Shown piece by piece: positions 34,364 to 35,001 of a stretch of 64,000 nt of DNA. Position 1 is the first letter of the stretch; each line of letters starts with the position of its first letter. The notes beneath the pieces are model-generated. The model did no database searches and had not been told where the DNA came from. It was given only the letters and a program-made list of their open reading frames with translations. Source of the stretch: Escherichia coli (lineage in GTDB: Bacteria > Pseudomonadota > Gammaproteobacteria > Enterobacterales > Enterobacteriaceae); the NCBI RefSeq assembly GCF_036507355.1, contig NZ_AP027877.1; one strand, given 5' to 3'. The position numbers and the translations under genes were made by a program.

Positions 34364-34431
34364 TAGCCAACCTCAAAAAGAAACTCTATCCACATTAGTC
34401 ATTACTCATCCATGCAAGTAGTGGATGAATC

Positions 34432-34749
34432 TCAATTTCTCCGCTGCTCTATTGCCGTAATCGCCTCCACGCGTTGTTGATGACGACCGCCTTCGTACTG
34501 TGCGCCCAGCCACGCATCCACAATCATTTTTGCCAGTTCGAGGCCAACCACTCGTGAACCAAAAGCCAGTGCAACTTCACTGGCGTAATGCGGATAATCA
34601 GTGCGCTCTGACGACCTAGTTTCTTTATCAATCCCCTCACTCATTGACCATGAATAAAAGGCTGGCACAGCAACACAGAATCCTGCGGTGCCAGCGACAT
34701 GACCGCCCATTGCTCCGGTACGTTTTTTAATAAAAAACACCGGTTGCAT
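34432..34749 (-). pseudogene. rpiB: rpiB-derived remnant (ribose-5-phosphate isomerase B / allose-6-phosphate isomerase), apparently internally deleted
   Basis: 105-codon ORF whose C-terminus (SSERTDYPHYAS...AFGSRVVGLELAKMIVDAWLGAQYEGGRHQQRVEAITAIEQRRN) matches my recollection of RpiB, but it is about 44 codons shorter than RpiB (149 aa) and its N-terminus is divergent. Confidence 0.55.
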
Positions 34750-35001
34750 TGATTAATTGTGCTCAGTATTTGCCGAAGTACAATATATATATTAAATATA
34801 TAAAACACCTCATATTATTTACAGAGATAATAAATTCGCGTAATTTTCCCTCTTCAGCACAAATGCCTAATAAAATGGATCGTTCCGCTCACACTTCCAC
34901 TTATTAAAGTCGCAATTTCCCAATTATGATAACGCCAGCTTTAAATGACGTATTTTGCATGGATTATATATTTACGACATAAATGATAAATGGAGATTTA
35001 T

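Follow-up and report, generated by a model that had tools for sequence, protein, structure and literature searches.

The window analysed here is a 64,000-nucleotide stretch of Escherichia coli DNA (contig NZ_AP027877.1) in which yjdP and yjcS are separated by exactly 638 bp (34364-35001), an interval whose sole notable open reading frame (ORF) has 105 codons (Table 1). The close spacing claimed in the first-pass annotation, about 640 bp, is thus borne out by measurement. In a K-12-type chromosome (L002) the order is yjdP, rpiB, alsR, alsB, alsA, alsC, alsE, alsK, yjcS, in matching orientation, and the yjdP-yjcS interval measures 7,270 bp. The K-12 map on which the annotation relied is therefore right in placing rpiB, alsR and alsBACEK between these two genes, and somewhat too generous in size, 8 kb having been given for what is approximately 7.3 kb. 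No als genes were identified outside the yjdP-yjcS slot in the rest of the 64-kb window, and an Rfam scan of 34300-35100 returned no RNA family at E<=1. On the left-hand side the correspondence with K-12 is close, with 98.5% identity over the block 34022-34569 by blastn and pairwise alignment, and the 68-bp spacer beside yjdP has the same length in als+ and O157-type loci, where it likewise precedes the neighbouring gene. The spacer between phnP and yjdP is longer in K-12 by ~100 bp (window 34026-34034 versus L002 11134-11232), and some of the genomes sharing the arrangement of the window (H1, H4 and H5) also have ~110 bp of additional sequence there; this length difference probably reflects the presence or absence of a REP-type intergenic element.

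Table 1. Genes and sequence features at the yjdP-yjcS locus (positions in the window)
Feature	Position	Strand	Evidence or remark
phnP	33239-33997	+	
yjdP, conserved left flank of the variable locus	34034-34363	-	NCBIfam NF041443 DDRRRQL_YjdP, 148 bits (cut-off 90)
yjdP-rpiB intergenic spacer, 68 bp	34364-34431	no strand	
Chimeric ORF, 105 codons	34432-34749	-	RefSeq name "RpiB/LacA/LacB family sugar-phosphate isomerase"
rpiB 3' end (RpiB residues 106-149 and stop), intact	34432-34563	-	132/132 bp identical to K-12 rpiB
Junction of 159-bp internal rpiB deletion	34560-34569	no strand	Both K-12 flanks align across a 10-bp overlap
Isolated rpiB fragment (~codons 29-53), decayed, 76 bp	34564-34639	-	Alignment to full-length rpiB alleles
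Junction of ~6.55-kb deletion	34640-34647	no strand	Gap between rpiB match (ends 34639) and alsK-end match (starts 34648)
alsK last codon and stop (CCA TGA), then terminator hairpin (stem GCTGGCAC...GTGCCAGC)	34648-34699	+	40/52 identity to K-12 L002 18567-18618
Scar-specific stretch, 78 bp	34700-34777	no strand	In scar alleles only
yjcS upstream region, conserved right flank	34778-35001	+	Collinear with K-12 (L002 18620 onward)
yjcS	35002-36987	+	98.8% identical to K-12 YjcS

Two pieces of rpiB adjoin each other in the interval. RpiB residues 106-149 recur unchanged as residues 62-105, the final 44 of the ORF, and RpiB residues 53-105 (53 codons, 159 bp) are missing with the reading frame kept. 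An in-frame internal deletion had been proposed from the sequence and is confirmed, although the gap had been put at ~44 residues rather than 53. A check for microhomology at the edges revealed a 6-bp direct repeat, AGCCAG (CTGGCT on the coding strand), which flanks the lost 159 bp in K-12 and of which one copy is left here. In K-12 rpiB the two copies of CTGGCT form the Leu52-Ala53 and Leu105-Ala106 codons, and the sequences at the two ends of the 159-bp segment read AAAGCCAGCAC and ACAGCCAGTGC. By these features the loss appears to be a typical deletion between short direct repeats. The second piece, the 76-bp fragment, matches rpiB of K-12 at 67/76 positions, of Escherichia sp. L006 at 68/76 and of E. 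whittamii at 66/76. A sensitive blastn search of 5,426 E. coli genomes and 80 rpiB loci from other species recovered no closer parent of the fragment above ~88-92% identity.

Two sets of candidate closer alleles from this search were rejected. Those members of the 90-95% identity class that were listed (H141, H142) proved to be partial alignments only, and the 18-kb NDM6 "plasmid" (H70) contains K-12-like phn-yjdP-rpiB sequence that stops at the end of the record. The latter entry (NZ_CP083871.1, L092), an E. coli NDM6 record labelled as a plasmid, carries K-12-identical phnL-phnP, yjdP and a truncated rpiB, and is probably a chromosomal fragment or an assembly artefact rather than a plasmid. 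As a further observation, the 159-bp deletion places a T-rich tail, TTTTGGTTCA, right behind an older rpiB hairpin, GCCAGTGAAGTTGCACTGGC (34565-34584, minus strand), forming a terminator-like site inside the remnant ORF. It is the one minus-strand terminator-like hairpin reported by a promoter/terminator scan, which also found a sole plus-strand promoter-like site, at 34945-34972 ahead of yjcS; both counts are within the chance expectation of the scan.

The larger loss, of ~6.55 kb in K-12 coordinates, extends from about codon 29 of rpiB to the last codons of alsK, and comprises rpiB codons 1 to ~28, the rpiB-alsR promoter region, alsR, alsBACE and nearly all of alsK. Its breakpoint is placed to within ~8 bp only, since the sequences on both sides have diverged. 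What is left of alsK is recognizable despite this divergence, the alsK-end match having a local alignment score of 28 compared with a maximum of 14.5 among 500 shuffles. The terminator hairpin is also predicted by folding, and the pairing of its stem has been kept by a two-sided change, from GTTGGCAC/GTGCCAAC in K-12 to GCTGGCAC/GTGCCAGC here.

Beyond the terminator lies a 78-bp stretch with a CCGGT...ACCGG hairpin enclosing a T6/A6 run, and ORF codons 1-17 come from the antisense strand of this stretch. K-12, the O157-type locus and the 80 rpiB loci of other species gave no match to the stretch, nor did the als+ loci of the 5,426 E. coli genomes by sensitive blastn. As it is without counterpart in als+ loci, the event was not a clean deletion of K-12-like sequence. 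A diverged rpiB 5' end or promoter was considered as the source of the ORF N-terminus and the 78 bp, a resemblance hinted at on the protein level by KK..A.G..HV..GF, and was rejected because local alignments did not rise above shuffled sequences (p 0.07-0.48). The alsK terminator and the 78-bp stretch together (34640-34785) fold better than shuffled sequences (z = -3.1). From 34778 onwards the right flank is common to the three locus types examined (als+, scar and O157-type), with 96.0% identity to K-12 over 34778-35300 and, for the intergenic part alone, 92% to both K-12 and the O157-type locus. The AT-rich sequence at 34750-35001 had been taken as the new junction together with the yjcS upstream region; the upstream region does begin within it, at 34778, but the junction itself lies at ~34640-34647.

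The ORF that spans most of these remnants was first described as a shortened RpiB with a diverged N-terminus that had accumulated changes. This holds for the last 44 residues, which are those of RpiB, but not for an end-to-end alignment, as the ORF aligns with the solved E. coli RpiB structures (1NN4, 2VVR) in two disjoint pieces; the first ~36 residues are not homologous to RpiB, the rpiB-derived part being residues ~37-105 only. Because the large deletion begins inside rpiB (~codon 29), the alsK terminator region and the 78-bp stretch, in reverse complement, make up the 5' third of the ORF, and residues 1 to ~36 are accordingly an antisense translation of these two elements. Profile scores are 77.0 bits against TIGR01120 rpiB (cut-off 138.65) and 61.7 bits against the TIGR00689 subfamily (cut-off 88.3), so that the ORF falls under every NCBIfam cut-off, with a good match confined to profile positions 103-143. 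Thr68 and the N-terminal phosphate and sugar contacts Asp9 and His10 of E. coli RpiB are all absent, Thr68 lying within the deleted residues 53-105 and Asp9 and His10 in the lost N-terminus (residues 1 to ~28). Deleted residues 53-105 also include His99 and the catalytic base, Cys66 (E. coli numbering; PMC4783025). The ORF thus lacks both the full-length score and the catalytic residues of a functional RpiB/LacA/LacB family member, and by sequence it appears to be a pseudogene remnant devoid of isomerase activity. The window translation is identical to ORFs annotated as WP_001183282.1 in three complete genomes, the exact protein is found on at least 1000 contigs, and variants of it are present in RefSeq as WP_001183283.1, WP_001183287.1 and WP_001182929.1. 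The database name of these entries implies an enzyme, whereas the sequence evidence points to a chimeric pseudogene remnant.

The wording of the first-pass annotation implied a feature of one strain, which does not hold, the scar core being present in 1,569 of 5,426 complete E. coli genomes (~29%) and the scar arrangement, at >=80% query coverage, in 1,568 of the 5,426. Approximately 3,400 of the 5,426 genomes have full rpiB instead, and ~447 have neither rpiB nor the scar. We sampled nine scar alleles across the identity range. All are exactly 638 bp long with identical breakpoints, which indicates one origin. Polymorphic sites among the nine number 13/318 in the ORF (4.1%) and 17/252 in the spacer between the ORF and yjcS (6.7%), and one substitution, the A at 34618, is private to the window, not occurring in the other eight sampled alleles.

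The polarity of the change is apparent from related species. One genome per species was scanned for rpiB and then searched by tblastn with the K-12 proteins, revealing a complete phnP-(yjdP)-rpiB-alsR-alsBACEK arrangement in E. whittamii, Escherichia L006, Citrobacter amalonaticus, two Enterobacter species and Cedecea davisae, with yjcS following alsK in both Escherichia lineages (E. whittamii and L006). As these relatives carry an intact operon at the site, als+ is ancestral and the scar is derived. Within the interval the remnants run from yjdP to yjcS as rpiB 3' end, the piece of codons ~29-53, then alsK stop and terminator, all in their original orientation; fragments of both ends are in place and the outgroups are intact at the site, as expected of a remnant derived by deletion. 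The deletion scar of rpiB-alsR-alsBACEK proposed for this window is therefore upheld, with remnants of both cassette ends kept and relatives outside E. coli als-complete at the same position.

A third occupant of the site is found in an O157-like genome (L004, NZ_CP028614.1 5033589-5042739), one of the ~447 genomes with neither rpiB nor scar, in which an unrelated sugar cassette lies between yjdP and yjcS. Its genes encode a hybrid sensor kinase, a sugar ABC transporter, a D-lyxose/D-mannose isomerase, a ketose-bisphosphate aldolase, a kinase and a response regulator. The O157:H7-type cassette shares with the scar the slot, the 68-bp spacer after yjdP and a right boundary near window 34778-34782, but the gene content is unrelated and no remnant of the cassette is present in the window. 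The scar allele, itself frequent, exists alongside two alternative sugar cassettes for the one slot, which behaves like a hotspot at which sugar-utilisation cassettes are replaced. The locus illustrates how such cassettes can replace each other at a single position.

We consider it highly probable (roughly 90%) that the interval is an old deletion allele of rpiB-alsR-alsBACEK with a single origin, widespread in E. coli and its close kin, in which the ORF is dead and whose carriers are allose-negative. A deletion of ~6.55 kb would have taken the 5' part of rpiB through nearly all of alsK, with the alsK stop and terminator staying behind. A 159-bp in-frame deletion, which we infer to be the later of the two, may then have arisen in the surviving rpiB piece between the CTGGCT repeats, by slippage or illegitimate recombination, and the rpiB pieces would by chance have come into frame with antisense non-coding sequence to yield the 105-codon ORF. 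It could instead be supposed that the site is empty in its ancestral form, the window never having had als and K-12 having gained rpiB-als by insertion. Such a history would be in keeping with a slot that is a replacement hotspot, with the different sugar cassette of O157-type genomes and with the ~447 of 5,426 genomes that have neither rpiB nor scar. It is nevertheless exceedingly improbable, as both ends of the als cassette are left in the window (the two rpiB pieces, and the alsK stop with its terminator), shuffling makes a chance origin of the rpiB and alsK-terminator matches unlikely, and Escherichia relatives together with three other enterobacterial genera keep the complete operon beside phnP. 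The chances that a deletion happened recently and privately in this strain are close to nil: the private A at 34618 could be so explained, and a nearby insertion sequence (IS) suggests a decaying genome, but the same breakpoints and 638-bp length recur in ~29% of complete E. coli genomes, in alleles up to ~4% divergent.

A different objection concerns the ORF, which might, whole or as its 70-aa C-terminal part, be a selected and functional short RpiB/LacAB protein, for example a regulatory or dimer-poisoning subunit. It is open in 9/9 complete genomes sampled, is annotated as a CDS by PGAP, and retains 44 C-terminal residues identical to RpiB; moreover, the seven nonsynonymous and six synonymous changes among the nine alleles, a small sample, give a ratio of 7:6 that is somewhat under the ~3:1 of random expectation. 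Against this, Cys66, Thr68, His99, Asp9 and His10 are gone, all family cut-offs are missed and the ~36 initial codons are antisense non-coding sequence. Frameshifted members of the protein cluster are common, with a 70-aa product on 130 contigs and a 92-aa product on 21, and are due to single-base indels in the N-terminal non-rpiB part, of which some fall within homopolymer runs and may stem from sequencing error; these variants speak against constraint on the ORF as a whole. The deletion has also removed the native rpiB-alsR promoter region, and a consensus scan located no sigma-70-like promoter upstream of the ORF on the minus strand. The perfect 3' 132 bp are accounted for if recombination with als+ alleles runs freely as far as the first breakpoint. 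A functional short protein is on this evidence very improbable, and the ORF likely evolves neutrally.

The age of the deletion allele is reflected in the uneven divergence of its parts. The 76-bp fragment differs by 9-12% from all full-length alleles, while the adjoining 132 bp are identical to K-12. On the simplest reading, free exchange with als+ alleles extends along the flank to the first breakpoint, and the fragment, caught between two heterologies, preserves old divergence. Three or four fixed differences of the fragment from K-12 match the L006, E. whittamii or Citrobacter alleles. Nonsynonymous changes in the fragment comprise V30G, G34E/D and W36R; scar alleles still segregate for V30G and W36R and have either E or D at position 34, and the same simplest reading has the fragment decaying further since the deletion. 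The trapped fragment and the alsK terminator are 9-23% different from every als+ locus in the 5,426 E. coli genomes. This raises the rather unlikely possibility that the scar is a very old allele predating much of E. coli diversification, or one introgressed from an unsampled Escherichia lineage. If true, presence and absence would have been maintained over the long term by niche-dependent (balancing) processes at a carbohydrate-utilisation hotspot. It is less likely that the surviving C-terminal RpiB peptide is expressed with a role of its own.

The counterpart of the deletion allele is the rpiB-alsR(rpiR)-alsBACEK D-allose regulon described in K-12 (Kim, Song & Park 1997; Poulsen et al. 1999, cited in PMC2808357). 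The scar resembles it in site, in the identical 132 bp of the rpiB 3' end, in the piece of ~codons 29-53 and in the alsK stop and terminator, and differs in having lost ~6.6 kb that hold all als genes, the regulator, the promoters and the RpiB catalytic core. Carriers are consequently without the AlsBAC transporter, AlsK, AlsE, AlsR and RpiB, and by analogy should not grow on D-allose, in agreement with published als-less strains. Ribose-5-phosphate isomerisation would rest on RpiA in these strains, an enzyme that supplies ribose-5-phosphate isomerase activity (Sorensen & Hove-Jensen 1996, cited in PMC4783025). The report on E. coli W describes the "absence of the ... alsBACEK regulons" and a lack of allose use (PMC3032704), and that on enteroaggregative strain EAEC 042 likewise gives the als genes as absent and allose as not used (PMC2808357), phenotypes determined by Biolog plates or growth tests according to these two reports. 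Both strains are alike with the scar carriers in the absence of the als genes and in showing the phenotype predicted here, although in their passages on these genes the two papers report gene absence without the fine structure of a scar (PMC3032704, PMC2808357). Strain 042 is described as having no rpiB at all (PMC2808357), and so may carry an allele other than the 638-bp scar.

The scar is already annotated in RefSeq, and the allose-negative phenotype has already been published for als-less strains. Metabolic reconstructions in which the 105-aa product is taken for RpiB would assign a second ribose-5-phosphate isomerase in error to ~29% of E. coli genomes. Given its single origin and fixed length, the scar could act as a lineage marker and as a predictor of an allose-negative phenotype.

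To the right of the locus, mdtN is split, by comparison with K-12, by a 1,264-bp insertion (37952-39215). The sequences on either side of the insertion both match K-12 bases 21792-21794, consistent with a 3-bp target duplication, and the 100-aa and 272-aa ORFs of the insertion, on the minus strand, have the two-ORF layout of an IS3-family element. In size and layout the element is presumably IS600, an insertion sequence common in Shigella. Across the 14 kb of window 28000-42000, identity to the best complete E. coli genomes is only ~97.5%, and none of them covers the IS. This and the IS in mdtN suggest that the window derives from a Shigella or from some other lineage outside the E. coli collection. 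Fragments of this 28-42 kb query match at ~10 places per E. coli genome and at 1,397 places on plasmids.
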